Origin: a virus
Reading direction: 5' to 3' (one strand)
IMG/VR virus record: IMGVR_UViG_3300044681_000369
Span: 64,001-128,000 of that record
DNA: 64,000 bases
The position numbers were made by a program, and so were the translations under genes. This document shows, in pieces, positions 1 through 57,800 of the stretch. Numbering within the stretch: position 1 is the stretch's first letter; the number at the start of each line of letters is the position of its first letter. The notes under the pieces were generated by a model. It did no database searches. It was not told where the DNA came from and saw nothing but the letters and a program-made list of their open reading frames with translations.

Positions 1-178
1 CGTTCTTATCAGCAGACCAATATATTCTTCTGATATTTACAACAGGAGAAGCCACGGTTTCAGTGGATTTCTTTAGTGTAGTGGCAAGGGCAATAGTCGC
101 AGTCTCGCTGTTCTGGCCGTGAACCTTTACGACACCTTGCACTTGTGTAAGTTTTAGAACAGTGGTAATTGCTGCCAT
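1..178 (-). CDS. Partial (runs off window start) hypothetical head-module protein, MAAITTVLKLTQVQGVVKVHG...
   Basis: Read manually: ATG at 178 preceded by GGTAAGGA SD, open to position 1. Lies downstream of the portal/core genes. Confidence 0.7.
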   Translation of the reverse strand, partial: MAAITTVLKLTQVQGVVKVHGQNSETATIALATTLKKSTETVASPVVNIRRIYWSADKN

Positions 179-188
179 TTGCTATTCC

Positions 189-491
189 TTACCTTTTAGT
201 TTGTGGCGAGCCTAATGTGGCTTGCATATCTTTTTTGGACTTTTTGTGTTTTGCTTTAAATTCTTTTTCGCCCATTTGTTCCATATCATACGCAAGCTCT
301 TTCATGCGACCTTCAGCCGCAAACTCAACCTCTTCTGCGGCAAGCTTGGCAGCAATTGCCATTTCTCGGCGCTTCTTGTCAGACTTGCCTGTAAATTGTG
401 GCGCATCGGATTTTTTAAAGTCACGAATGACTGTACCCATGCTTGCCTTTCTTACGTCAAGTCTTTCTAAGAGGTTTTTATACGTTATCAT
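189..491 (-). CDS. Prohead core/internal head protein (gp68-position)
   Basis: Charged ~100 aa ORF. Likely start MITYKNLLE at 491 overlaps the upstream stop. Synteny after portal and the gp67-like gene. Confidence 0.6.
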   Translation of the reverse strand: MITYKNLLERLDVRKASMGTVIRDFKKSDAPQFTGKSDKKRREMAIAAKLAAEEVEFAAEGRMKELAYDMEQMGEKEFKAKHKKSKKDMQATLGSPQTKR

Positions 492-771
492 CTGTGTTTT
501 CCTGAGCTTCGTCTGCAATATCATCTTCTACAGTTGCTGGCGAATCATCAAAAATGCTTGCGGCATATTGTTGACGCATAGCATCCAATCTTTGTGCAAC
601 TTTATCATCCATAATACTGTTAAACATCTCTTCCGCATCCGAAAGAGTATTATTATCAATACTATTTATAAAGTCATCCATAGTAAACTCTGAATTATCT
701 TCAACGTCTTCATTACCAACTGGTTCTTTAGGATCGTTTACTGGTTCATTTTCAAATTCATTATCTTCCAT
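478..771 (-). CDS. gp67: Acidic prohead core protein (gp67-like)
   Basis: Very acidic small ORF directly after the portal. Likely start MEDNEFE at 771. Confidence 0.6.
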   Translation of the reverse strand: MEDNEFENEPVNDPKEPVGNEDVEDNSEFTMDDFINSIDNNTLSDAEEMFNSIMDDKVAQRLDAMRQQYAASIFDDSPATVEDDIADEAQENTDDNV

Positions 772-2341
772 TATTTTGCTCCAAGTTTGATTGCGCATTC
801 GGATCAAGTTCTTGTGGTGGTTGTCCCTCTAACGGAGAATAATCTGGAGGTGACACTTCAGGAACTTCCGAATCATTTTCTTGTTTAATTTCGTCAATCT
901 CATCGTCAGAAAGTTTCAAAATTTCTTTCTGAACATAAGACTTACTATACATTGTACCAATAAATGGCGCAACGCCCTGCAAAATTTCTATCCGTGATTG
1001 CAAAATTTGTTGCTCTTTTGATTCGGTATAGAAAGCATCTGTAGCATATCTATACTGAATTTGATCTTTAATTTTTTTCCAGTCTTCTTCTGTAAGAATA
1101 CCTTTGAGAATTAACTGTGTTTTTAATAAGTCATCAAACAACAAAGCAAAACGTCTACGAAGTTTAGCAACAAATTTTGTAAATTTCCACTCATCTCTAT
1201 TTATTTCTGCGGCACGACCAAAATTTAAACCTGTAACTTGCTGTAGTCTAGAAATTGGCACATTCAACGCTTGATATAATTTTGTCTGGAAGTATTCAAT
1301 ATCTCCCATTTCACCTAAACCCTGACCGCCAGGTAAAGTCTCAATCTGTGTACCTCTGCCACCTTCTCTTCTTGGCAACCAGAAGTCCTCAAGCATTGAC
1401 ATGAACTTTTTGTCATCTCTAATCTCACCAGTATTTGAATCGTAAACAATTTTGTTACGATACTGATTCATAATGCCTTTTAAATATTGCTCGGCTTTAA
1501 TCTTAGGCAAGTTACCAACATCAACATAGAATACTCTGCGCTCAGGTGCTCTAGTGATACGATAAATTACTGCCGCATTTTCCATCATGCGTAACTGATT
1601 TGCTGGACGAATTGCCTTGTGTAAATACGACAAAGGCATGTTTCTGTCCATGTCTTTTAATCCAGAAGGCACAAAACAAATTGCATCCTTCTCAATACGC
1701 ATTGTTCCTGCACCACCTTGTTGCAAAGATGCTGAAGGTGTAAAGGTCTTGTTAGGAACTAAGCCGCGTTCATTGTAAATAAAATACTCTTTGATATCCT
1801 TAATAAACTCAACACCAGTTGCCTGATCTTTTTCTTTAAGGATTTCTCGCATCTTTTTAATCTTGCGAGGATCGATATATCTTACGTCTTTTAAACCATC
1901 TTTTGGTCTTGCTGTATCAATAACTTTATGAAAATACAGTCTACCGTCAATATACCAATGTCTAAAATAATCTTGCGCTCTTAAATTAAAATCAAGTAAT
2001 TGAAGCAGGTATTGAAACTCTGCTTCAATATCTTTCTTGATTCCTCTAGATAAGTCCACGTTATCTAAGTCAATAGTAAGTGGAGCTTCATCATCTAAGT
2101 TAGCAACAGCATCGTTTACAATATCGTCAATTGCAGTGTCAATATCGGACATTATAGCAATGTCACGATACTTTCTAATCAACTCAATTTCATTGTTTGC
2201 AATACCATCAATGTCGATATATGTGCCGTAATAACCACCAGCTCGGATAGTTTCTACGCCACCATCGTCCGTAGGCGCCACGAACGATCTCTCTGTTTCG
2301 GGCGCCTTGGACCTTTCAATTGTATAACCAAATAATTTCAT
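761..2341 (-). CDS. gp20: Portal vertex protein
   Basis: T4 gp20 motifs IYRITRAPERRVFYVDVGNLPK and EDFWLPRREGGRGTQIETLPGG. Confidence 0.98.
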   Translation of the reverse strand: MKLFGYTIERSKAPETERSFVAPTDDGGVETIRAGGYYGTYIDIDGIANNEIELIRKYRDIAIMSDIDTAIDDIVNDAVANLDDEAPLTIDLDNVDLSRGIKKDIEAEFQYLLQLLDFNLRAQDYFRHWYIDGRLYFHKVIDTARPKDGLKDVRYIDPRKIKKMREILKEKDQATGVEFIKDIKEYFIYNERGLVPNKTFTPSASLQQGGAGTMRIEKDAICFVPSGLKDMDRNMPLSYLHKAIRPANQLRMMENAAVIYRITRAPERRVFYVDVGNLPKIKAEQYLKGIMNQYRNKIVYDSNTGEIRDDKKFMSMLEDFWLPRREGGRGTQIETLPGGQGLGEMGDIEYFQTKLYQALNVPISRLQQVTGLNFGRAAEINRDEWKFTKFVAKLRRRFALLFDDLLKTQLILKGILTEEDWKKIKDQIQYRYATDAFYTESKEQQILQSRIEILQGVAPFIGTMYSKSYVQKEILKLSDDEIDEIKQENDSEVPEVSPPDYSPLEGQPPQELDPNAQSNLEQNNGR

Positions 2342-2370
2342 TATTTAACCATTCTACGATACCGCCAAAA

Positions 2371-2904
2371 TTAAACGGCGGTACCACCAGCTGACGAGTA
2401 TGTGTAATACTGATATTGGAAAGTCACTGAGAACTCTTCAATAACATCATTCTGACCATAGTTTAGACCAACATCAGATACGTTGATTGGGAATGCACCC
2501 TCAAGAACGTATGTTGCAATTGCGGCTTCGGAATCGCCAGTCTCGCGGGCTAGTTGCTCAACAACGATTTGCTGAGTGTAGTCCTGCCAGGCTGTTGCGC
2601 CCTCATTGGTTTGAACGTTGTTAATTAGGTTCATCCATTCCATCATTGCACCGTGGATGGTAAAACCAGTGTCGTTAAGAACTGTAATTGTGAACGGATC
2701 ATAGATTCGCTCACCAGCAAACTTAACTTCACGACCACGATACTGTACAATCGTTGGATTGATTGTAGCTGATGGAAGTGTAGCACCGGTGACTAGCAAG
2801 TTGTAGTCACCTAGTGTGCCGTTTGGTGTGTTTAGGGTAACTCTAAATTGGTTTGGTCTTGCACCACCATTTCCTAGTAACCCCTTAAAAGCGTCAATTT
2901 GCAT
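2371..2904 (-). CDS. gp19: Tail tube protein
   Basis: GGARPNQFRV, YRGREVKFAGER, IEEFSVTFQYQY; lies between sheath and portal. Confidence 0.95.
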   Translation of the reverse strand: MQIDAFKGLLGNGGARPNQFRVTLNTPNGTLGDYNLLVTGATLPSATINPTIVQYRGREVKFAGERIYDPFTITVLNDTGFTIHGAMMEWMNLINNVQTNEGATAWQDYTQQIVVEQLARETGDSEAAIATYVLEGAFPINVSDVGLNYGQNDVIEEFSVTFQYQYYTYSSAGGTAV

Positions 2905-2942
2905 AATAGTCTCCTATTTCTTTTGTTCTATTTATTGGGTTA

Positions 2943-4610
2943 TTAGGCACCAACTTCCTCGAACGATACTGAAGTTCTTACCGCAACAAAGTTGAGGTAA
3001 ATGAAGTTGATTGAACGGGCAGGTTTGATGTAGATGTCTGCAACAAACTCATTGCGGTCAATAACTTCTCCAGTATTGTTTGTTTCGTCACAAACAACTC
3101 GGAAGTCATAGATACCACGGCGACCCTGTACGTCTCTTAGGAAAGGCTCAACCATGGAGCGGAACTGCGCTCTTGTGAATACATCGTTGAACTCGAACAA
3201 CTGATACTTAGCGGCAGTAGCAATTGCTTTCTCAAGAACAATAAACAGTCTACGAACGTTAATACGATCAAATGCGCTTGGCTTGCTCAACTGAGTCTTA
3301 TCACCAAACAAGACTGTACCCTGACCAACAAACGAAACAACTGGGTTGACGTTCGATTTGTATAGAGTATCACGCTCTGTCTGATCTGGTGACCAGATTA
3401 GCTTGATAACATTCTTGACCTGACCACGATTGTAACCAGCAGGTGACCACCAAGGATCATTTGTCTGGTCTGTTCTAGCACATAGACCGGCAGTATCAGC
3501 ATTTAGAGGAATGTTAACATACTCGTCATTGTATGAGTCGTATTGAACTTTCCAGCCAGAATCCATCACCGCATATGAAGTTGAGCGATTGATGGTTGTG
3601 TTTCTGTAGTCTGCAACGTCGGTAGCCTCTGAACCAGCATTATTCTTAACTGCCACTAGAGGAGGCGAGAAGAATACCATGCAGTCTAGGCGAGCTAGTG
3701 CTACGTTGTCGATGGCATGCTTGACGACCGTATCGCTGTGACCACCAGTTAGTAGCAGAGAAACATCGTACTTGTCTTTGTCGGCCAGCATTGAGTAGCC
3801 AACATTGATGTCTGCATCCGAAGGTTCAACAGAGGTACCACCAGCAAAGGTGTGTGTATCTGGCTCAGATAGGCTCATAAATGTTGTGCCAATTGCTGTC
3901 CCGCCCCAGTTGGTCATTGAATTAGGATGATCCATCCACCAAATATACTGAGAACCCTTGTTGAGAACTTCTTTATAGTAGTTTGTGCTACCGTCAGAGA
4001 GTTTAGCAGTAAGAGCCTTAGACATGAATGGCCACTTCTCTAGTACGGCACCCTGTGTTCCGGTAAATACGCCGCTACCGTCGATGATGATAACGTGAAG
4101 TTCGTCATTTGAACCCGACTTGCTGGCTACAAAAGCAGATGTGCCTGGAGCACTATCAAAGTATGCTTTGTAGTCCCATTCGTCAAATGTTGCTGAGTCT
4201 GCCATGGAAACGATAAGACCGTTGCCACCTAGACCTGGGCATTTTGCCGCCCAGTTGCCAACATCAGCAGAACCTGTTGAGTAGTTGTTGTCGTAGTGAA
4301 CCTCGTTCTCAACAAGAATGCCTGTGCCGTCGGCAGTAGCATTCTTTGAACCTTCACCAACTACACGAACCAACTGTAGATTGTTGCCGTAGCCCAAAAA
4401 GTTAGATGCAGTAAAGAAGTCTACCTTATTGGAAACTGGTTTACCGAAGTATCTTACTAGATTTGCTTCGTTAGAAATTACTCTAACTTCCTTAACAGGT
4501 CCCCAAGTGAAATTACCAACAAAGCCTGCCGCAGAACTTGATACCGCAGGAACAATGTTGGTTAAATCCTTCTCTGTAACTTGGACGCCTGGCGATAATT
4601 GAAAAGCCAT
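2943..4610 (-). CDS. gp18: Tail sheath protein
   Basis: SPGVQVTEKDLT N-terminus; WWSPAGYNRG, FDRINVRRLF, IKPARSINFI. Confidence 0.98.
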   Translation of the reverse strand: MAFQLSPGVQVTEKDLTNIVPAVSSSAAGFVGNFTWGPVKEVRVISNEANLVRYFGKPVSNKVDFFTASNFLGYGNNLQLVRVVGEGSKNATADGTGILVENEVHYDNNYSTGSADVGNWAAKCPGLGGNGLIVSMADSATFDEWDYKAYFDSAPGTSAFVASKSGSNDELHVIIIDGSGVFTGTQGAVLEKWPFMSKALTAKLSDGSTNYYKEVLNKGSQYIWWMDHPNSMTNWGGTAIGTTFMSLSEPDTHTFAGGTSVEPSDADINVGYSMLADKDKYDVSLLLTGGHSDTVVKHAIDNVALARLDCMVFFSPPLVAVKNNAGSEATDVADYRNTTINRSTSYAVMDSGWKVQYDSYNDEYVNIPLNADTAGLCARTDQTNDPWWSPAGYNRGQVKNVIKLIWSPDQTERDTLYKSNVNPVVSFVGQGTVLFGDKTQLSKPSAFDRINVRRLFIVLEKAIATAAKYQLFEFNDVFTRAQFRSMVEPFLRDVQGRRGIYDFRVVCDETNNTGEVIDRNEFVADIYIKPARSINFIYLNFVAVRTSVSFEEVGA

Positions 4611-4667
4611 ATTCTTCTCCTCGTTTTAATATAATCTGACAACCACTTGTCTTGTTTTATATGAATT

Positions 4668-4675
4668 TATTTATA
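4668..4675 (-). promoter_or_regulatory. T4-type late promoter TATAAATA upstream of gp18
   Basis: Exact TATAAATA on the minus strand in the gp17-gp18 intergenic region. Confidence 0.8.
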
Positions 4676-4688
4676 ATAACCGATATTT

Positions 4689-6320
4689 CTATCTAAACCA
4701 ATTCGATCCCACATCGGAATCGACTTTCCACACATCGCCCGATTCCACAAAAACTTCTTCTTCAGTGCCGTTATTTATAGCACCGAAAGGAGTAAGTTCA
4801 TCCTCGATCTGTTCCATCTGCTCTGAATACATCTTCTTACGAACATCAACATCTGTCATGTCTTTGAAGTAAGGATTACTTGACATCCAGGCAATTAAAA
4901 CCAATGACATTACGAGATCATCAAAATATCCTTCGTCTGCCATCCAGGATCCTTGCTTTTCAATAAAAGTCGAGAACTCAGAGATGGTATCCGCATCAAA
5001 TACCAATAATTTCTGCTCTTCAAGTAAAGATTTTAAGGCAAAACAGCCCTGGCGCTTTACTTGTTTGGTCATTCTAACACCGCGTTGGGTTTTTGTGCCA
5101 AATCCAGGTGACAAATATTGCTTCAACTGGGCTTTGACAGTAGTTAGAATGTTGTCATACTCCAATTCCATATGGAGAATGTCTGCTACTTGTTGACCAA
5201 TATCGTTAATCTCAACAAGAACATATGCTTTATTATAATCATTGCCAACCTTAGCAATGATGTTTGGAAACAACATGGGTGCAATCTTATTATCACGATA
5301 CTTAGCCACCAGTTTATATGGGACTTGAGTTACGTCAACAACACTAAATGTTGAATAATCTCCACCCACGCCTCGTGCCGTATCAACACCCATCGCATAA
5401 ATGTGATCTTTTATAGGCTCTTCATATATATCTAAACCGTCTTTTTGATAAATTGGATCAACAGAACTCATGGCACCCAAAGTCTTGGCACCAATCAGTG
5501 TGTTGCTTGAACCCAAAAACTCACATAGAACTTCTTGATTGAACTTCAATTCACCAAGAAGACGTAACTGTTCTTCTGCCCATGCATCATCTCTACCAGG
5601 AATTCTGTGGTAAGGAATGAACATCGGCTCAAACCCGTTACGACCTTTTTCTGCTTCGTTCCAGAATTTCCAGAAATGGTTATAACCAAGTGGGGTTGAG
5701 GTCAAAAGAATTTTTGTTGTTTGACCAGCTGAAATGGTAGGATAAACGGATGCAAAGAACTGCTCTGCAACGGTGTTTGGAATGATTGCCGCTTCGTCAA
5801 TGTATAGCCAGTTAACAGACTTACCACGAATACCAGAAGCGGTAGTAGCGGCGGTAAAAATTTTAGACCCGTTTTCTAGTTCTACGTCACCCTTGTTCCA
5901 TGTACGAACGCCCTGTTGCATCCATAATGGCAAATTCTCATACATACCCTGATAACGAGCCATAACTTCCCTGGCTGCAGCCGTCTTGTTAGCCATAATA
6001 GCCACGGTCTTACTATCTTGGAAAAGAGTATACCACAAAATACAAGCGGCAGATGTAATAGTCTTACCCTGCTGGCGACCTTCCATTAAAATTGCTTTAC
6101 GATTGTTTAGAATGTGGTGAACTTTTTCTTTCTGACAATCGTATAATTTAAATAATTGTAAGCCGTGGTCCAGAGTAACTATTTGACAATAGTTCTCAAT
6201 AAAATAAATTGGATCTTCTTGGCACTTTATCAACTCAATAAGTTGTTCGTTGGTAAAAGTGTGTGTAAATCCAGCCGGCTTTAAATTGATATTACCGTGA
6301 TATGAATTTTCAGTCGCCAT
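4689..6320 (-). CDS. gp17: Terminase large subunit
   Basis: Walker A GRQQGKT, Walker B LYIDEAA, STPLG, nuclease motif DDLVMSL. Confidence 0.98.
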   Translation of the reverse strand: MATENSYHGNINLKPAGFTHTFTNEQLIELIKCQEDPIYFIENYCQIVTLDHGLQLFKLYDCQKEKVHHILNNRKAILMEGRQQGKTITSAACILWYTLFQDSKTVAIMANKTAAAREVMARYQGMYENLPLWMQQGVRTWNKGDVELENGSKIFTAATTASGIRGKSVNWLYIDEAAIIPNTVAEQFFASVYPTISAGQTTKILLTSTPLGYNHFWKFWNEAEKGRNGFEPMFIPYHRIPGRDDAWAEEQLRLLGELKFNQEVLCEFLGSSNTLIGAKTLGAMSSVDPIYQKDGLDIYEEPIKDHIYAMGVDTARGVGGDYSTFSVVDVTQVPYKLVAKYRDNKIAPMLFPNIIAKVGNDYNKAYVLVEINDIGQQVADILHMELEYDNILTTVKAQLKQYLSPGFGTKTQRGVRMTKQVKRQGCFALKSLLEEQKLLVFDADTISEFSTFIEKQGSWMADEGYFDDLVMSLVLIAWMSSNPYFKDMTDVDVRKKMYSEQMEQIEDELTPFGAINNGTEEEVFVESGDVWKVDSDVGSNWFR

Positions 6321-6783
6321 GATCTATAATATTTTCTTTTTCTGCTTTTAAGGCTTTCAGTAATTCTTGTGTGCTTCCGGCAAAAACAATATTATTCTGG
6401 GTATCGATATTTTGTGACTTAGATTCTGGATCACGCAACTTCTTTTTTGCGCTTTGAAGAGCAAGCAAGTCTTTAGCCGTATCGCCTGTTGTTTTAATTA
6501 ATTGTCCAACAACCTCATATGCTCTAGGGCTATCGCTTGATAACGCAACATTTAGTGCGCCATCTAAAGCCTTTTCGCTTTTAGTGATGAGATCGTTTAA
6601 TTTTTTTCTTGCTACCTGATAATCATCTTCAATATCATCTCCGGTGGAAACGACTTCAGGTAAAGCTGGCGGGTCTTGAATTGCAGGAAGCTGTTGGGAT
6701 TCTTCCCGCTTTTTTAACGCATCTTCCAGATGTGTTCCAAAAATATCATCAAGTTTATTATAGGGGTTGTTCGTAGGTTTCAT
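6310..6783 (-). CDS. gp16: Terminase small subunit
   Basis: SDSPRAYEVVGQLIK and NNIVFAGSTQELLK. Start MKPTNN at 6783 has a GGAG SD. Confidence 0.92.
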   Translation of the reverse strand: MKPTNNPYNKLDDIFGTHLEDALKKREESQQLPAIQDPPALPEVVSTGDDIEDDYQVARKKLNDLITKSEKALDGALNVALSSDSPRAYEVVGQLIKTTGDTAKDLLALQSAKKKLRDPESKSQNIDTQNNIVFAGSTQELLKALKAEKENIIDHGD

Positions 6784-7549
6784 CAAACTGCTCCACATAG
6801 TCCCAGGCATCAACCACAGTTGCGTCTTCAGGATTTACTGTAACTGTATATTTACGGCTAATATCCGCATTTGTGTCTAAAGTCTCATAAGTCTTAGCAA
6901 TTGCCGTTTTAATAACGCCTTCTTGACTTACTGGACCATAGAAATTTAATGCTAGGGTAAATGATAATTCCCAAACAATTGCTGTTCTCTGAGTAAAGTT
7001 GCCCTCATACACATCTTGATATGTAATTCCGTCTAACCCAATTTCAAGAACTCTTTTGATTCCCATTTCTGGCAAATCATTAATAGAAACAGCAAAGTCT
7101 GGATTAAAAAACGGCAGTATTTGCTCTAATATCTGTAAACCATCATCTTGATTTTTTGCGGCAATATACAAATTAATATTCATATTATATGGTGCCGCAA
7201 CATATTGACTGCGAACGGAGTTTGGTCTATCGTCAACTCCTATCGCCTTATTCTTCTGAATGTAACTGACTTTTCTACTAGGATCATGAGACAGCCCTAC
7301 AATCTCAAAGCCCATTCTGGGAAGTATTGTAGCAACAGTGGCTGGCTGTACGCCATCATCGCCACCAGGAACAGCCTGAACTCTAGTTAAAAACTTATCT
7401 TTTGGAGCATATGCAAGTGGAACTCTGAGAGATTGTACAATCTTGGAAGAGGAATTCAATCTATTGATCGTTATTTGATTGAAGATTGTTCCAAAGGCAA
7501 TAATTGCCTTTCTAATATGCTGATGATAAAAGTGTTGTTTTAAAAACAT
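6758..7549 (-). CDS. gp15: Tail sheath stabiliser/completion protein
   Basis: FYHQHIRKAIIAFGTIFN, LPRMGFEI, QILEQILPFFNP. Confidence 0.95.
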   Translation of the reverse strand: MFLKQHFYHQHIRKAIIAFGTIFNQITINRLNSSSKIVQSLRVPLAYAPKDKFLTRVQAVPGGDDGVQPATVATILPRMGFEIVGLSHDPSRKVSYIQKNKAIGVDDRPNSVRSQYVAAPYNMNINLYIAAKNQDDGLQILEQILPFFNPDFAVSINDLPEMGIKRVLEIGLDGITYQDVYEGNFTQRTAIVWELSFTLALNFYGPVSQEGVIKTAIAKTYETLDTNADISRKYTVTVNPEDATVVDAWDYVEQFDETYEQPL

Positions 7550-31558: not shown

Positions 31559-34500
31559 TTAGATTGAATAATTCGTGCCGACGTAATCACCGGAATGAAA
31601 GTCGCCAGCCCAATAATCCTGTATATTTATAATGCCTGACTCACTAGTTCCTAAAGTATCTACTGTCTGTTTTGCCAGAGATGAACTCTGATTTTCCATT
31701 AAGTGTAATGTTGACTGCGCACCGCCCCCATTTGAGGCTATTGATATATTTTCATTTACTTCATTTGTCTCATTTACAACAGGACCATGGAAAACAATAC
31801 GATCATCGCCTACTGATGTTGCATCTACAACACTCTTTACTGTGTGTCCAGAAAATACATCGGTTACTATCGGATCGTCATTAGGAACAGTAAATACTGG
31901 CTGATTAACTACAGTATCCGAAGTAGATACAACTTCTGTAATAACTTTCTGATATGTTACATTATATAGCTCACCTACAATTGCGTTTTCTACTATAACT
32001 TTTTCCATAGAATATATGGCATTATCAATAGCTTTAAGAATTACGTCTGAATTTGCAACATAATCCTCAGCAAAGTAGGCTGGTTGACCTGGATCCATAT
32101 ATGGCGTTTCGATCAAGGAATCACTTGAAGCATCCAAATACTTCTCAAACATTGTGGTGCGATCTTCACTATGAGATGCAACATCTGATAGTAATTTTAC
32201 AACATCAATATTTGTGTTTGTTGTTGTAAGTCCATAATCAGCAAGAGATTTGCCTACATCAAACGTTTCTGCATGTAAGGTTGTTGCAGTATCGGTTTCA
32301 CCTTTTTCAACTAATGTGAAAGAAGAGTCAAATGCGCCGCTCGTTGAGTCTGATGTTGGTTTATAATAATCCGCAACATGTGATTCGGAAAGTGTGGCTA
32401 CATCTGCCAGCTCTTTCAGGAATTCCACAGCAACAACTTCATTGGTATCTAACAATTCAGATACAAGATTATAGAAGTGAATTGGCTGTCTCTGAATGTT
32501 GAACGTACCAAAAGAGATAGTATTTCGAATTAATAATTCTCCAAATAATGCCATACCTGCTGGATGTACGGTATTCTTTACCATTGTCATCCAGTTTACG
32601 GACGGGATCTTTGACCGAATTACATATGAATAGTTCTGATAGTATAAGTTGTCCTGAAGTTTATTAACATCAGACAACATGCCTCTTCTATCTTTATTTC
32701 TTCCAAGTCTTTGTGTTATTGCACCGGTTTCAATTCGAAGTGTCGCAACACCATTTCCTGTTTTCGATGTGATGTTGACATCAATTACTTGATTTTCAAA
32801 TCCTGAACCGGAAGAGAAGACGGTTACCGCTGTAGGCGCACCATCTGCATCAACAGATGTAATCTGAATACTTGCTTTGTTGTCAACACCAGTCTTAACA
32901 TAATCGCCAGCAAAATAATTTAAACTTGTATCTCGATAGGAATAGACATATGTTCCGGCAATACCGGACTCAATAATGTCATATACTTCATTTACCTTAA
33001 ATCCATAATTTGGTGTACCAGTAGTTTCAATGACTGAAACACTAGAAATGCCTCTGGTTAAATAACCATATTTTACAGTTGGATCAGTTTCTAGATATAC
33101 ATATGTTTCAATATCGGTGGTGTCAAACTCAACATTAGTGTCTTCTGTGTTATAATTTTCTCCACCAGCAATCATGGTAACATATTTTATGCCACCATTT
33201 CCATCTAGAACTGCTCTTGCTTGTGCGCCACTTGCATCATTATCGCCGACAAAATTGACGGTTGGCGCGGCAAAATAGCCGCTGCCATTCGAATCTAGTG
33301 CATCAATAAATCTGTGTTCGGATCCTGTGCCTACACCAGTAAAGTTTATAAAATATTCTTTAGATAGAATATTATAATCGCTTGATCCTGTGCCAGTAAT
33401 ATTAACATTGGAATACAACGATATGCCCATATATGGTTGGCTATCGTCGGCGTCTTCCTCAGTTTCTTTATTTGCAAAGTAACCTTCTTCGGCATATCTT
33501 GGATCTGCATCTAGTAAGGTTTCTGCAAGTTTAATCGTATTGTCATCAATTTTAATTACATAATATGAAGTCCTATCTTCCAGTCCAACTACTGGATCTA
33601 CAGGATTTTGATAGATTACAAGATCGCCAGTTAAAAATCCATGATTAGGAATAGTAATAGTATCATCAGCTACGTTTACAGCACTGCTACTAAAGAATGT
33701 TTTTGGTGTTATCCTGTTTAGGGAAACATCGTCCATGTATAGACGAAAATAATCTTTGTCTATCTTCTTTACATAATAATGACGATATGAAATTAATCCA
33801 CCAATTGGTTCGTTTCCATAACCAGGATCATAGACTACAATATCTCCGGTTTCTAAACCGTGATCTTCAACAAAGATTCTGCCGTATCTTAATCCTACAG
33901 ACGACCCAATTGTTGTCATATAATCTTCAGCAAAATAATCGCCTGGATCATCGTCTGTTGATGCAACATATGCCGTTGAGTTTGCGCCAGGATCAAACAC
34001 ATATGATCTATCGGCAGGATCGGCAGTAACTGCCACAATTTCGCCGTCTACAATTAATGGTTGACCAGATGCACCAGAGCCAGGAAGTGTAATTGTATCT
34101 TGGTCCAAACGCTCAACCACAAGTTCATATGTGGGTTTTGTTGAATACGCAAGTTTAGAAATTGAGATAACCCGCAAATCGTGGGTATCAAAAGTGTTTA
34201 CTCCAAATAATGTTTTTGGAGAATAAACTTTAATGTATTTTCCTGCTAATTCAAACGGATTACCTGTAGTTAATCCGTTTGTCTGAATTCTTATTATTTG
34301 TTCTCTTAACCATACACCATCAGATGCTCTGAGCATGTATTTTGATGGGTATATAATTTCAGGTTTTTCATTGAAAAAGGTTCTGAAAAGAAACTCAATA
34401 GACTTTTCAGAACCCTTTGCCTCATAAAATTCTCGAATAAATTTAACAAGAAGTCTATCAGTAACTAATGTATTTGTCGGAAACATTTGGAGAAATTGTT

Positions 34501-52927: not shown

Positions 52928-53866
52928 TTAATCATCGTCTGCTAGACTTGCAAAATAACTCATGTTATCTGCATCGTCATCATCACTCCAAGGCGGAGTA
53001 TTATCGGTCTTAGACTCAACCTTAGGCGCAGTCTTAGCCTTCATACGAGTTTCAATAAACAACTCATCTTCGGCATCAGTTGGCTGTACGCTCTCAACAG
53101 TAGTGGCACGAACACCAGTATTGGCAAGAACCATATCCAACTTCTTCTTCAGTTCGTCATATGACTTGAAGTTTGAAGGATCAAGGAAAGCATTTAGTGA
53201 ATGTTGCTTTTCCCAGATGGCATTGAGCGCCTCATCACTTTCCGCAACTGGAGTCGGAGTTGTATCAAACTCAGACTTATCGTAGTTGCGATAACCTTCA
53301 ACCTGACGAATGCGGAGTTTGAAGTTCACTCCCTCATCAAAGTCAAACGGATTGATCGGATTTTCGTCTTCAAAAGTAGGCTGCATTACATCCTTGATCT
53401 TATCAAAGATTTTCTTACCATACTTGTAAAGAAATACCTGACCTTCGTTTGCCGGATTAGCAGGATCCTTGATAACAAGAATGTTAGAGAAGTAAGAAAG
53501 CCTACGCTTCTGCTTACGGGCAATTTCCTTGTTTGCCTCGATACCCGAATTCCACAATTCGCTGTTGAGTTCACCAACAGGATCGGGCTTGTTTAGGGTA
53601 GTAAGAGAGTTTTCGATGTACCACTTGCCAGTCGGGCCTTGGAATCCATGATCCCAAACTCGTACCCATGGAAACTCCTCACCCTTAGGTGCAGGCAAGA
53701 AACGAATGATAGCCTGTCCGTTGCCAGCCTTATCGACTGTTGGCTTCCAGAACTTATCTTCTTCGTTTGACTTTTGTCCGCCGGTAGAGATTGCTTCTAC
53801 TTGCTTGAGAAGTGTATCGAAATTTCCGCGATTTTTGCGGAGGTCTGATAGGGAATTAAACGACAT
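52928..53866 (-). CDS. gp32: Single-stranded DNA-binding protein
   Basis: FWKPTVDKAGNGQAIIRFLP, YKYGKKIFDKI, NYDKSEF, acidic C-terminal tail. Confidence 0.97.
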   Translation of the reverse strand: MSFNSLSDLRKNRGNFDTLLKQVEAISTGGQKSNEEDKFWKPTVDKAGNGQAIIRFLPAPKGEEFPWVRVWDHGFQGPTGKWYIENSLTTLNKPDPVGELNSELWNSGIEANKEIARKQKRRLSYFSNILVIKDPANPANEGQVFLYKYGKKIFDKIKDVMQPTFEDENPINPFDFDEGVNFKLRIRQVEGYRNYDKSEFDTTPTPVAESDEALNAIWEKQHSLNAFLDPSNFKSYDELKKKLDMVLANTGVRATTVESVQPTDAEDELFIETRMKAKTAPKVESKTDNTPPWSDDDDADNMSYFASLADDD

Positions 53867-54091: not shown

Positions 54092-54682
54092 TTAGACCTT
54101 TTGGTCTTTCTCCTTGGTCCAGATTGAAAAGAATTTATCCTTATCAAACTTGATAAAGATACGATACTTCTTTACAAGACGAGCAAAGTCTTTCCAGATA
54201 AAGTCGTTTTGCATTGAAGTATCATTACTATACACGAAATCGAATAGCTTGTCAAGAACAATTACCGATTCCAATGTAATTTTTTTACCTAAGAACAGCT
54301 TTAGGACTATAGGATGCTGACCAGAATACGAGACCAGCGGATCTTGACCCGTTGCCTCAGCCCATTCCATTATGGTTCCAGCATCTTGTTTAAATTGATA
54401 TGAGAGTCTGCCCTGTAGAGTTTTCCAGTTTTCATAAACTTCTACAGATTCGGAATCAAAAACTCCGTTGTGGCCATTTACAAAGTTTGAAACGAAAAAA
54501 TTTATGAGGTCTTTCTTTTCGTACTTTTTTGCTAATTTACGAAACAACAGAATATCTTTACGCTTCATAAAAGTTTCAGGCTTACACTTTACCGCGCTTT
54601 TTGTTTTTGTTATATCGTATTGATCTGAGGTAAAGTGAAGTTTTAACGACATGTAAAGTCGATAAACATCAAAGGGTTCCAT
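54092..54682 (-). CDS. gp59: Helicase loader
   Basis: Y..Y.SLKLHFTSDQYD, F.KLAKKY, ITLESVIVLD; lies between gp33 and gp32. Confidence 0.85.
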   Translation of the reverse strand: MEPFDVYRLYMSLKLHFTSDQYDITKTKSAVKCKPETFMKRKDILLFRKLAKKYEKKDLINFFVSNFVNGHNGVFDSESVEVYENWKTLQGRLSYQFKQDAGTIMEWAEATGQDPLVSYSGQHPIVLKLFLGKKITLESVIVLDKLFDFVYSNDTSMQNDFIWKDFARLVKKYRIFIKFDKDKFFSIWTKEKDQKV

Positions 54683-54978
54683 CAGAGTGGCAACTTCCCG
54701 TCTTTCTTTCGTTTCAACATGTTGAGGTCTTCTGCCTCAGCACGAATCTTCTCTTTTAAGGAAGTTGTCAGTAATGACGAAACCGATTCCATTTCCAGTT
54801 CTTTCTTGACACAATAATCAACTAGTATATCCATGCAAGACAAGCCTGCCAAATATGCCTGTTTTTCAATGTATTGCGAAAACTCGGTAGCGGTATTAAA
54901 TTCCTTCGTAATTAGGAATTGTGAGCTAACCTTTTCAGACATTGGTACATCCTCTACCATAAATTCTGTCGTTGTCAT
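54682..54978 (-). CDS. gp33: Late transcription coactivator
   Basis: FSQYIEK...DILVDYC...SLKEKIRAEAEDLNML. Confidence 0.88.
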   Translation of the reverse strand: MTTTEFMVEDVPMSEKVSSQFLITKEFNTATEFSQYIEKQAYLAGLSCMDILVDYCVKKELEMESVSSLLTTSLKEKIRAEAEDLNMLKRKKDGKLPL

Positions 54979-55012
54979 AATATACCTTTTAAGTGTTTAA
55001 TGCGTTAAACAA

Positions 55013-55041
55013 ATAATACACTAAGTCAATCATTGTGTCAA
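55013..55041 (-). promoter_or_regulatory. Sigma70-type early promoter for gp33-gp59-gp32
   Basis: TTGACA (55036-55041), 17-nt spacer, TATTAT (55013-55018). Confidence 0.8.
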
Positions 55042-55048
55042 GAAAAAT

Positions 55049-55600
55049 TTACACTTCTTTATAAAAAATATGTAATCCAATTTGTCTAACTCTACGAAGA
55101 CCAGACCATCCAGGATTAACATATATTGCGTGATAATATGTAGCACCTCTAGTATTGTCGGTTTCATTCCCCAACAGTACATCCCGAGATACTGTTACAA
55201 TTTCATCAAATTTTGTCGGGTTTTTAATACCGTCTGGTTTACCATCACAGTACCAGCTGAACTGGCATCTATTTCTCAATGGATTTCCATGTCTATCTTG
55301 TTTCGATTGATAAACGACATCACAGATTGTATCTGGAAATCGTTCGCTATTTTTCCTATTTAGCGTAACGTGAGCAACGGCTTTCCAGCCTTCGACCGAT
55401 TCGTTTCTAGCCTCAAAATATACATTCTGAGCAAGACAAAATAGTTCTTTCGAATCGACACTTTCAATCAATGGAGAAGGCTGCACAGTTGGTGTAGGTG
55501 CAGCCTCGAAAAATGATCCATTGTCTATATTTTTAAATAAAACGCTACTTGGTACTATACTAATCGCTAATAAGGATATAATCTTTACTGGTATTCCCAT
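55049..55600 (-). CDS. SleB/Hydrolase_2 cell wall hydrolase with hydrophobic N-terminus
   Basis: CLAQNVYFEARNE, VTLNR, FPDTICDVVYQ, CQFSWYCDG, GATYYHA, IGLHIFY. Confidence 0.92.
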   Translation of the reverse strand: MGIPVKIISLLAISIVPSSVLFKNIDNGSFFEAAPTPTVQPSPLIESVDSKELFCLAQNVYFEARNESVEGWKAVAHVTLNRKNSERFPDTICDVVYQSKQDRHGNPLRNRCQFSWYCDGKPDGIKNPTKFDEIVTVSRDVLLGNETDNTRGATYYHAIYVNPGWSGLRRVRQIGLHIFYKEV

Positions 55601-55667
55601 TCAGATTACCTCTATATTGTTGAACTTAGGAGTTATTTAACGGTGGTTCCTCACACCGTAAGTTTAT

Positions 55668-55859
55668 TTATTCCTCAACCTCGTTTTGAATCTTGGTGAG
55701 TTCATCAGACAACTTAGAATATGCACGTTTCATCGCCTTTACGATTTTTGCCCGCTTCTTTTCGTCTTTTGTTTCAATTTCAACATTAATGTTTGCCGAA
55801 ACTCCAGAGTATTCTCCTTCACCCGACAAAATTTCCTGAACGTAAACATTCACCGACAT
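55668..55859 (-). CDS. Small hypothetical protein
   Basis: Start MSVNV at 55859 with GGAGA SD; the ORF-track extension overlaps the tmRNA. Confidence 0.6.
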   Translation of the reverse strand: MSVNVYVQEILSGEGEYSGVSANINVEIETKDEKKRAKIVKAMKRAYSKLSDELTKIQNEVEE

Positions 55860-55884
55860 AATTATATCTCCACAGGTTAAATAA

Positions 55885-56190
55885 AAAATGAGTGCTTCTG
55901 TTGCCAGGTGCACCCGAACCCCGTTCTAGCCTCAAGCGGCTAGAGCATAGCCTTCGTTATCGTTGGCAGTTATAAAATGACCACTCGGTCAGCGAATCAG
56001 TCTCGGTTTGTCCTATACAATCGCAGTCGATCCTGGTTCACCCCCATCATAGATACATGGCAGCCACCGTAGCAGCCGTTCTGGATTAACATGGTGTAAA
56101 CAACATGCATAGCCATGTATCTATGGTGGAGGTGGCGGGAGTCGCACCCGCGTCCTACAATCTTTCAGTCTACGTCAACAACTGATTAGA
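55885..56190 (-). ncRNA. ssrA: Circularly permuted (two-piece) tmRNA, alphaproteobacterial type; tag (A)ANDNEGYALAA
   Basis: Minus strand order: acceptor piece ending GCGGG-TGCGACT-CCCGC-CACCTCC-A-CCA (56151-56124), a 78-nt intervening segment, then the coding piece starting GGGGGTGAACCAGGATCGAC (56045). Acceptor stem has G3.U70. Resume context ATAACT-GCC; tag ORF 55967-55932. Confidence 0.93.
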
Positions 56191-56224
56191 TATTTAGTAT
56201 ATCTGAGTTTTTAGATATTGTCAA
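56191..56224 (-). promoter_or_regulatory. Sigma70 promoter of the tmRNA with overlapping late-like CTAAATA
   Basis: TTGACA (56219-56224), 17-nt spacer, TATACT (56196-56201), continuing ...CTAAATA. Confidence 0.85.
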
Positions 56225-56231
56225 GAGGTTT

Positions 56232-56894
56232 TTAATCATATTGACCGTTTTCGTACATTCTTTTTGACTCCAAGAGATAAGGAACATAAGGATCTCGTCT
56301 ATCAATAAAGACAAGCGGTTCTTCATCATCCACAGCCATAAGAATGACGCTACGATTGATGGGAGTGCCCGTACGTTCTTCATACATGATAGCATACGCG
56401 GCACATTGGGCAAAATATCCAGGAATGTCCTCATGTCTTTTGACACGCTTGGATGTTTTGAAGTCGATAACAGACAGTCTACCATCAAACTCGGCAATAC
56501 AGTCAACTTGACCTGCGATGCCTAGATGATCGCTGTATAGAAATGCTTCGATATAGTGAATGTTGTCAATTCGATCCAAGACAGGAGCAAACTTTGTCCA
56601 CATCTCTTTTTCAATCAAATTGAGTTCCGGCAAAGGTTCATTCTTCAGATAACTCTCACAACAAGCGTGGACCTTGGTACCACGAACGGTAGCCTTTTTG
56701 GATATCTGATCTGCTACCTCTGAGCCGACTCTTTGGCGCCACTCATAGATGGCTTTCTTGCCACGAACAGAGAGAACAGTGGTGACAGACGGATATCTGT
56801 CACCACTTTCAGTCTCATAAACCCTTGATCCATCTATGTTTTTTCTGGTCAGGGTCGGTAGTTTAGGTAAAGCCAAATGAGTAAATGTTTTCAT
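56232..56894 (-). CDS. PD-(D/E)XK exonuclease (RecB-family, common in T4-like phages)
   Basis: YPSVTTVL, RGTKVH, AGQVDCI, IDFKTS, QCAAYA. Start MKTF at 56894. Confidence 0.88.
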   Translation of the reverse strand: MKTFTHLALPKLPTLTRKNIDGSRVYETESGDRYPSVTTVLSVRGKKAIYEWRQRVGSEVADQISKKATVRGTKVHACCESYLKNEPLPELNLIEKEMWTKFAPVLDRIDNIHYIEAFLYSDHLGIAGQVDCIAEFDGRLSVIDFKTSKRVKRHEDIPGYFAQCAAYAIMYEERTGTPINRSVILMAVDDEEPLVFIDRRDPYVPYLLESKRMYENGQYD

Positions 56895-56900
56895 GATGTA

Positions 56901-56938
56901 ATCATAACACAAATCTACCCATTTGTCAAGAGGTTTTT
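56901..56938 (-). promoter_or_regulatory. Sigma70 promoter for the exonuclease (probably leaderless mRNA)
   Basis: TTGACA (56924-56929), 17-nt spacer, TATGAT (56901-56906), ATG 6 nt later. Confidence 0.8.
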
Positions 56939-57686
56939 AACAGTGTCTTTCTTCGTACTCCATTCTGGCCAAGATATACTCTTTTACCAAAGCCGACCGT
57001 ACAATATCGTCTGCCGTAAATTCCACAGTTTTGAAGGACGGCATCAACTCTGCAATATGCATGAACTTGTGCAATCCAGACATATCATGTCTTTTGTATA
57101 AGTCGGTCTGTCTAAAGTCACCACAGAAAATAATTTTTGAATTATTTCCAATTCTAGTCATAATGGAATTTAGTTCCATATCTGTCATATTTTGACATTC
57201 ATCGACAATTACAATTGCATGATCTAATGTGATACCTCTAACATAAGAGGTAACCATAAAATCTATAGATTTTTGTTCCTGCAATCTTTGAAATGGCTGA
57301 ATGTGATTGAACAACTCATTACAGATTTCAATGTAAGGTTGCATATAAACTTCGGTCTTTTCTTTCTCGTCTCCAGGCAAATGACCAATTTCTCTAGATG
57401 GCACAGCCGATCGCACAATAATTACTTTTCCGTATGTTGAGCCATATAGAACTTCATCTAGGGCTTTATAGAGGGCAATATATGTTTTCCCTGTTCCTGC
57501 TACACCGTGTAAGAGTATAGCTCTGGAGTCTTTGTCGAACATGTCCCAAAATAGTTTTTGATTCAAGTTTTTTGGTGACATCCTTTTTAAGTCTGAATAT
57601 TTTACTTTGCATAGCTTACTTTTCTCTATAGTAATTTGCTCGTCTGTCGGGTGGATAACATGAAGGTTATTCTTTTTTCTCGACAT
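56937..57686 (-). CDS. phoH: PhoH-family ATPase
   Basis: GVAGTGKT, IGHLPG, YVRGITL, VDECQN, TRIG, GDFRQTD, DIVRS. Likely start MSRKK at 57686. Confidence 0.95.
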   Translation of the reverse strand: MSRKKNNLHVIHPTDEQITIEKSKLCKVKYSDLKRMSPKNLNQKLFWDMFDKDSRAILLHGVAGTGKTYIALYKALDEVLYGSTYGKVIIVRSAVPSREIGHLPGDEKEKTEVYMQPYIEICNELFNHIQPFQRLQEQKSIDFMVTSYVRGITLDHAIVIVDECQNMTDMELNSIMTRIGNNSKIIFCGDFRQTDLYKRHDMSGLHKFMHIAELMPSFKTVEFTADDIVRSALVKEYILARMEYEERHC

Positions 57687-57800
57687 AAATGCCCTTTTGC
57701 GGTTGGAGTTATGATAAAGGCGACACTGCTTACGCGGTGTCGCCCGTGAATGCCTACGATGCGGCATGAAACTTTCTATGTCTTCTTCTATGCATAACTT

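Follow-up and report, generated by a model that had tools for sequence, protein, structure and literature searches.

An intergenic gap in the 64,000-nt stretch of viral DNA analysed here (the window; bases 64001–128000 of a 140,970-bp IMG/VR record with 40% GC and a CheckV completeness of 86%) is confirmed to hold a complete, intact, circularly permuted tmRNA gene of the alpha type, encoded by the phage and equipped with its own promoter. The gene is real and under selection, and we put at roughly 0.85 the probability that this ssrA is functional, has descended vertically and belongs to a lytic aquatic myophage of the T4-like Melnitz/pelagimyophage group (Kyanoviridae). A preliminary description of the window had implied that such a gene was novel; published work already describes two-piece tmRNA genes at this very locus in this very phage group (PMC9004378). 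Because the gene of the closest cultured relatives, at the same genomic spot, has been published, ours is a sound annotation rather than a discovery, and what is new is the tag variant and a distinct phage genus within a published family.

Identification and architecture of the tmRNA gene

The preliminary description had proposed a phage-encoded, permuted tmRNA of the two-piece type and had named ARAGORN and the Rfam alpha model as checks; both agree with it, as does a newer Rfam model. ARAGORN called a single permuted tmRNA, with the tag ANDNEGYALAA, and no other gene anywhere in the window. RF01849 (alpha_tmRNA) matched positions 55887–56228 of the minus strand over its full length (model positions 1–355; 112.4 bits, E = 7.6e-30), and the newer RF04321 (tmRNA_permuted) matched the same positions (model positions 1–213; 98.7 bits), against curated Rfam cut-offs of 50 and 47 bits, respectively. 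In a permissive rescan, alpha was the top family of its Rfam clan for this RNA, and the tmRNA was the sole RNA family returned from 55300–56700 at E ≤ 1. The precursor fold has a z-score of −5.1 relative to shuffles; this and the agreement of the detectors are far beyond chance.

The motifs originally listed, namely the acceptor end, the G3.U70 alanine determinant, the resume context ATAACT-GCC, the tag and the GGGTGC/GCACTC element, were all seen on the minus strand (Table 1). The gene is permuted, with the encoded CCA (56126–56124) upstream of G1 (56045) on that strand, and ARAGORN flags it as such. Alanine identity is provided by a 7-bp acceptor stem, GGGGGUG/CACCUCC, which contains G3.U70 and is followed by the discriminator A, while the tag frame runs from an alanine resume codon (GCC) to an LAA end, with the in-frame stop inside a hairpin. 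The pairing suggested earlier between AATCAGT (56187–56181) and ACTGATT (56001–55995) is exact, each being the reverse complement of the other, and it forms the outermost helix of the Rfam model, where the helix is longer by a few pairs. Two long-range helices join the pieces, AAUCAGUU with GACUGAUU and GAUUGUAG with CUGCGAUU; a minimum-free-energy fold of the whole precursor did not recover them, and they are supported by the comparison with relatives described below.

A sigma-70-type promoter is present as had been claimed, although at 11 of 12 matching positions TTGACA-17-TATACT is not the ‘perfect’ example it was said to be. Its position predicts that transcription starts near 56189, where the acceptor piece begins. 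Both hexamers are the same in the nearest relative (locus L008), and the TTGAC of the −35 element is kept in many relatives. The promoter and the tmRNA gene together occupy the gap between the flanking genes exactly, and an ORF-only annotation would indeed overlook this RNA gene.

The spacer between the pieces ends in TGAT immediately 5′ of G1 and is presumed to be excised by RNase P and 3′ trimming. No convincing gene lies in it, and none of 39 distinct spacers contained a tRNA according to ARAGORN. A 39-codon frame that starts in the window spacer was taken as chance because it has no ribosome-binding site and reads into the tRNA-like domain.

Table 1 Features of the tmRNA locus, numbered along the window unless a contig is named
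Feature	Position	Strand	Remarks
Sigma-70-type promoter	56196–56224	−	TTGACA (56224–56219), 17 nt, TATACT (56201–56196); 11/12 matches
Acceptor (3′) piece	56124–56188	−	Ends CACCTCC-A-CCA (56134–56124); 5′ end placed from the promoter position
Outer-helix strand	56187–56180	−	Within acceptor piece
P2a strand	56162–56155	−	Within acceptor piece
T arm	56151–56135	−	Acceptor piece; GCGGG/UGCGACU/CCCGC
Acceptor 3′ strand	56134–56128	−	Acceptor piece
Discriminator A	56127	−	Acceptor piece
Encoded CCA	56126–56124	−	Acceptor piece
Spacer (intervening segment)	56046–56123	−	78 nt; 12–14-bp closing stem extends the acceptor stem (predicted fold)
Coding (5′) piece	55887–56045	−	Starts GGGGGTG
Acceptor 5′ strand	56045–56039	−	Coding piece; GGGGGUG
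P2a partner	56026–56019	−	Coding piece
Outer-helix partner	56002–55995	−	Coding piece
Hairpin	55991–55978	−	Coding piece
Tag frame	55932–55967	−	GCC resume codon 55967–55965 (context ATAACT-GCC), ANDNEGYALAA, TGA
Stop-codon hairpin	55944–55938 with 55931–55925	−	Coding piece
Terminal hairpin	55915–55890	−	GGGTGC, 14-nt loop, GCACTC, then T (U) run
PD-(D/E)XK nuclease (phrog_298)	56232–56912	−	Upstream neighbour and synteny anchor; stop codon 8 nt from −35
PhoH-like gene	56937–57767	−	Part of the conserved order; Pfam/PHROG searches
63-codon ORF	55668–55859	−	Downstream of the tmRNA; GGAG 9 nt before ATG
gp33-like late-transcription coactivator	54682–54978	−	98 codons; 42% identity to Melnitz gp33, E = 4e-15
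gp59 helicase loader	54092–54682	−
gp32 ssDNA-binding protein	52928–53866	−
Long-spacer locus	L089: 1856–2400
Long-spacer locus	L090: 5322–5771

The phage and the neighbourhood of the gene

Both the core genes of the record and the position of its ssrA place it in the Melnitz/pelagimyophage group of T4-like phages (Kyanoviridae). It encodes the T4 major capsid protein gp23 (E = 3e-138), the T4 portal protein gp20 (E = 4e-172), gp32, gp59 and PhoH. By tblastn, the capsid protein is 69% identical to that of Melnitz and 68% to those of HTVC008M and Mosig, the top hits being Melnitz and HTVC008M, and gp32 is 56% identical to its counterpart in Melnitz and 53% to that in HTVC008M. As in Melnitz, ssrA has the PDDEXK nuclease on one side and the gp33/gp59 genes on the other; the order in the window is PhoH, PDDEXK nuclease, tmRNA, 63-codon ORF, cell-wall hydrolase, gp33 homologue, gp59 and gp32, with the hydrolase gene thus between the tmRNA and the gp33 homologue.

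No tyrosine integrase (PF00589) was matched in the 141-kb record. SmpB, noted as missing from the window, is likewise without a match (PF01668) in the entire 141-kb record, whose CheckV completeness of 86% bounds that result.

The record holds 13 tRNA genes and the one tmRNA. The tRNA genes lie on the minus strand at record positions 130–6834 and 33484–33560, with 12 clustered in the first 7 kb; four have been reported for Melnitz. The 63-codon ORF has a good ribosome-binding site, directly follows the terminator-like hairpin of the tmRNA and had no match in Pfam or PHROG. We considered it as a gp33 homologue and rejected it, as it has no similarity to Melnitz gp33 and the homologue is the 98-codon ORF at 54682–54978.

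Relation to known tmRNAs

Phage tmRNAs have been catalogued since 2014 (PMC4131195), and the 2025 tmRNA database contains 79 phage sequences (PMC11915505). In Melnitz, a phage of OM43 Methylophilales, Buchholz et al. 2022 (PMC9004378) described a complete ssrA of the two-piece, alphaproteobacterial type; permuted tmRNAs were found in 17 of the 47 contigs related to it, and 18,146 phage genomes yielded 133 distinct tmRNAs, of which 53 were two-piece and 50 of these came from aquatic phages (PMC9004378). When we searched the cultured genomes, RF01849 scored 106.7 bits on Melnitz and 83.8 bits on HTVC008M, both above its cut-off, and their tags are ANDNYVPVDYALAA and ANFNEYALAA, respectively. A glutamine riboswitch is reported for Melnitz and Mosig, with its authors stating that it is not a defining feature (PMC9004378); Rfam gave none 3′ of the window ssrA, at E ≤ 1 in 55300–56700.

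The Melnitz record has the order PhoH, PDDEXK nuclease, two small ORFs, ssrA, gp33, gp59, thyX and gp32. Like Melnitz ssrA, the window gene is a permuted alpha-type tmRNA of a T4-like aquatic myophage of about 141 kb, with a sigma-70-type promoter directly upstream; the two share the order PhoH, PDDEXK nuclease, ssrA, gp33, gp59 and gp32, and neither phage has SmpB or an integrase. They differ in protein sequence (identities spanning just the gp32 to major capsid values given above), in tag (ANDNEGYALAA here, ANDNYVPVDYALAA in Melnitz) and in spacer length (78 nt versus 142 nt), and in the window phage, with its genome GC of 40%, the 63-codon ORF and the cell-wall hydrolase gene separate ssrA from gp33.

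The two-piece tmRNA of Alphaproteobacteria was reportedly described in Caulobacter by Keiler, Shapiro and Williams in 2000. The window gene resembles this form in the order of acceptor piece, spacer and coding piece, in G3.U70, the discriminator A and the encoded CCA, in an AND-type tag ending in LAA and in a conserved terminal hairpin with the loop ACCUGGCAACAGAA. It differs in belonging to a lytic phage with no partner smpB, in having phage genes, rather than the sampled bacterial ones, as its closest kin in the tree and in that its two pieces are predicted here. The tmRNAs of mycobacteriophages (Bxz1 group) and Bacillus phage G are likewise phage-borne ssrA genes of large lytic phages with many tRNAs, but they are of the one-piece, non-permuted form and come from unrelated phage lineages with Gram-positive hosts (PMC4131195).

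Conservation, covariation and descent

With the nuclease gene as anchor, 80 IMG/VR loci were fetched, at protein identities of 50–74%. A permuted tmRNA lies just downstream of the nuclease in 59 of the 80 (55 called by ARAGORN and four by Rfam), and about ten of the tmRNA-negative loci end early downstream. G3.U70, the discriminator A and the encoded CCA are invariant in 55 parsed relatives’ genes and in the window gene. Around them, acceptor positions 4–6 vary by compensation (GGGGGTG/CACCTCC, GGGGGCG/CGCCTCC, GGGGCTG/CAGCTCC, GGGCCTG/CAGGTCC and GGGCCAG/CTGGTCC), the T stem shows compensatory changes across the same 55 genes, and the outer helix is compensated too (TTGATC/GATCAA in L008, ACAATT/AATTGT in Melnitz). 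Spacers in the relatives measure 21–246 nt, most of them being stem-closed and ending in TGAT before G1.

In a 15-sequence alignment, which is poor over the variable hairpins, pairing was 100% in both the T stem and the acceptor stem, the G.U pair was present in 15/15, the outer-helix core was 91.5% paired with 3 covarying pairs and the 3′ hairpin was 86.7% paired; the helix adjoining the T arm was 68% paired (MAFFT alignment). Changes on both sides were seen at 28 pairs. The covariation score was 0.342 against 0.148 for shuffled alignments (0 of 500 shuffles reached 0.342) and at most 0.112 when the partners were slid, in tests that favour structure, since ARAGORN demands pairing within the tRNA-like domain and the window sequence, itself in the alignment, supplied the structure.

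The tag has diversified within this frame: about 20 different tags occur across 58 relatives’ genes called by ARAGORN, and all 58 have an open frame that starts with AN or AAN and ends with AA and a stop. A pairwise alignment with L008, the nearest relative, shows every functional block and the promoter hexamers to be kept, with double compensatory changes in five helices; two codons of the tag are different, and the spacers, both of 78 nt, are unrelated. The window gene pairs with that of phage L008 in the tmRNA tree (SH-aLRT 95), with the sampled bacterial genes across one branch; this tree is short, is unrooted and has a bacterial sample biased by its choice through the tag. The closest nuclease gene is also that of L008 (74% identity).

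The census shows that an ssrA following a PDDEXK nuclease is a common arrangement among aquatic T4-like phages, and one under structural selection. Five tag-pattern hits without an ARAGORN call (L096, L121, L125, L139 and L158) were set aside; they are cut at the locus end or missed by ARAGORN, and their kinship to the window phage is limited to the conserved 3′ region of the tmRNA.

The tag and the inference of a host

In a scan of 185,579 bacterial species genomes, ANDNxxYALAA occurred at 72 loci, 0 of which have EG at the variable positions, and the exact tag ANDNEGYALAA had no match elsewhere in IMG/VR. The description of the tag as the phage’s own stands for every record searched, bacterial or IMG/VR. 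The nearest bacterial tag, ANDNEAYALAA, is one residue away and occurs in permuted genes of about 30 high-GC Rhodospirillales/Defluviicoccus-type genomes. The IMG/VR phage contigs L089 and L090 also have this tag, together with a 32-nt T-arm/acceptor sequence identical to that of the window; they and the Rhodospirillales-type tag are a lead, not a host assignment. We rejected the bacteria with this tag as a guide to the host, as the tree separates their genes from the phage genes and the likeness to the window gene does not extend beyond the tag and the 3′ hairpin, which is universally conserved.

The preliminary description had read the permuted form and the tag pattern as marks of Alphaproteobacteria that point to the host class. 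ANDNxxYALAA also turns up in tmRNAs of the one-piece form, in Desulfovibrionales, Myxococcota and others, and alpha-type genes are carried by Melnitz, whose host is OM43, and by a phage of the betaproteobacterium Alcaligenes. The latter, the cultured N4-like Alcaligenes faecalis phage vB_Af_QDWS595 (L007, OK149171.2; Schitoviridae), has a permuted tmRNA at 55011–55359 on the minus strand (RF01849, 57.7 bits; ARAGORN tag ANDNVYAAAA), where its GenBank record has no feature. Because of Melnitz, vB_Af_QDWS595 and the spread of the tag pattern over other phyla, an alphaproteobacterial host inference is unsafe, and the census likewise shows that a phage alpha-type permuted tmRNA is an unreliable host marker. 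The vB_Af_QDWS595 gene adjoins a tRNA cluster; over its T arm and acceptor end, 33 of 34 nt agree with the window.

Contig integrity and spacer variability

DNA nearly identical to the record was found in freshwater runs, which are probably its source, and in marine runs of other studies. The runs listed as containing the sequence included none of RNA, and the contigs compared were DNA. Among marine contigs of about 98% identity, one spans 55000–56049 and another 56126–57200; in these independent metagenomes each half of the tmRNA is thus joined to flanking phage genes, the coding piece to those downstream and the acceptor piece to those upstream. The marine contigs break solely at the spacer and at a 34-nt T-arm/acceptor stretch.

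In four metagenome runs, the depth over this 34-nt stretch (56122–56155) was about 10 times that of the phage DNA around it, with many different flanks, and for that reason many distinct tmRNA genes in those waters, phage or bacterial, must have an identical copy of it. The marine strains of about 98% identity (runs X4–X7) diverge from the record exactly at the spacer (56046–56123), and because of this the spacer looks strain-variable. One marine spacer variant has at least 81 nt of unrelated sequence with a T-loop-like GGTTCGAATCC motif on the gene’s strand.

Proposed function and alternative explanations

tmRNA function requires SmpB. If the window gene acts as a functional ssrA, host RNA polymerase would start at the sigma-70-type (early-type) promoter, and the 5′ end of the acceptor piece would be the first part transcribed. 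In the predicted fold of this single precursor the acceptor stem continues into the spacer stem. By analogy with the Caulobacter two-piece tmRNA, host RNase P would cut 5′ of G1 (56045) and 3′ trimming would halt at the CCA (56124), discarding the 78-nt spacer. Complementarity and covariation suggest that the pieces would then be held together by the 7-bp acceptor stem, an 8-bp helix adjoining the T arm and the 8-bp outer helix. A compatible host AlaRS could charge the RNA through G3.U70 and the discriminator A, and host SmpB and EF-Tu, as in tmRNA biology generally, would bring it to ribosomes stalled on broken mRNAs. Translation would resume at GCC and append ANDNEGYALAA, a putative ClpXP/Lon-type degron ending in LAA, provided that the host proteases are compatible. 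The phage may gain added ribosome-rescue capacity during host transcription shut-off and mRNA degradation, and the rescued ribosomes might stay free for phage messages. This benefit is conjecture, here as in the literature, and the roles in counter-defence and replication timing raised in the preliminary description are speculation.

We think it improbable, though worth stating, that the gene goes beyond being a spare copy of a host function and that three things hold jointly: that the alpha scaffold has been kept through changes of host, including non-alphaproteobacterial ones, that the tag diversifies fast and that tag and rescue are tuned for the phage. Such tuning could, for example, counter the stalling of ribosomes that results from mRNA decay induced by the phage or from abortive-infection RNases of the host, or steer tagged host proteins to degradation for amino-acid recycling. 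As a possibility, the stem-closed spacer is a swappable slot, being the sole part that differs from the marine strains of about 98% identity.

A different role, which we regard as quite unlikely, is that of an inhibitor or decoy RNA that, for instance, titrates host SmpB or shields host tmRNA from a defence nuclease, with tagging irrelevant. There is a precedent in mycobacteriophage DS6A, whose tmRNA is reduced to the tRNA-like domain and reportedly inhibits that of the host, perhaps through titration of SmpB (PMC4131195, PMC11915505), and because the record encodes no SmpB the phage RNA has to compete for that of the host. A pure decoy is nevertheless disfavoured because it would not need the resume codon, tag frame, LAA ending, stop and stop hairpin, all of which are kept here and in 58 relatives despite the divergence of the tag. 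Less probable again, and already disfavoured, is a neutral passenger, either a host ssrA captured once and now drifting or the att-site remnant of an integrating element. tmRNA genes are often integration sites and their fragments occur in prophages (PMC9004378), and the window tag is one residue off that of the Rhodospirillales-type genomes; yet the gene is full length rather than a 3′ fragment (RF01849 positions 1–355), phage replication genes flank it on both sides in a record with no PF00589 integrase, and its locus, promoter and compensated structure are conserved across phages whose nucleases are just 50–74% identical. Recent capture from a host also fits poorly with the tree, which, unrooted and with a biased bacterial sample, places phage rather than bacterial tmRNAs nearest.

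That the arrangement arose as an assembly chimera or from host contamination is scarcely credible, even for an uncultivated viral genome assembled from a metagenome in which the 34-nt repeat at about 10 times depth breaks assemblies: contigs of other studies tie 55000–56049 and 56126–57200 to the same flanking phage genes, the arrangement recurs in complete cultured genomes and dozens of IMG/VR contigs, and promoter and gene fill the intergenic space exactly. An att remnant and a chimera had been named in the preliminary description as findings that would overturn it. Both were examined and are excluded by the full-length gene, the missing integrase, the 59 of 80 loci, the compensated helices, the invariant G3.U70, discriminator A and CCA, and the independent marine contigs that join both halves to the phage.

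The immediate value of the phage ssrA is for annotation, as a real RNA gene, with a new tag variant, in a gap that protein-only pipelines overlook. The biological question is the reason for a tmRNA without SmpB in lytic phages, for which the cultured phages Melnitz, HTVC008M and Mosig are better suited.

Promoter and spacer variants among relatives

The −10 element upstream of the tmRNA is TATAAATA, a T4-type late-promoter motif, in 15 of 38 distinct relatives (loci L005, L008, L017–L020, L044, L047, L054, L059, L070, L071, L074, L076, L085 and L086), where it is often preceded by a TTGAC −35. In the window promoter, TATACT is followed by AAATA (ACTAAATA, a 6/8 match to the late motif). Because a late-type −10 motif occurs with a TTGAC −35 in many relatives, their tmRNA gene might have both early and late transcription. 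The long spacers of L089, L090 and Melnitz have an open frame right after the closing stem: 73 codons in a spacer of 246 nt, 55 codons in one of 150 nt and 54 codons in the 142-nt spacer of Melnitz (L005).
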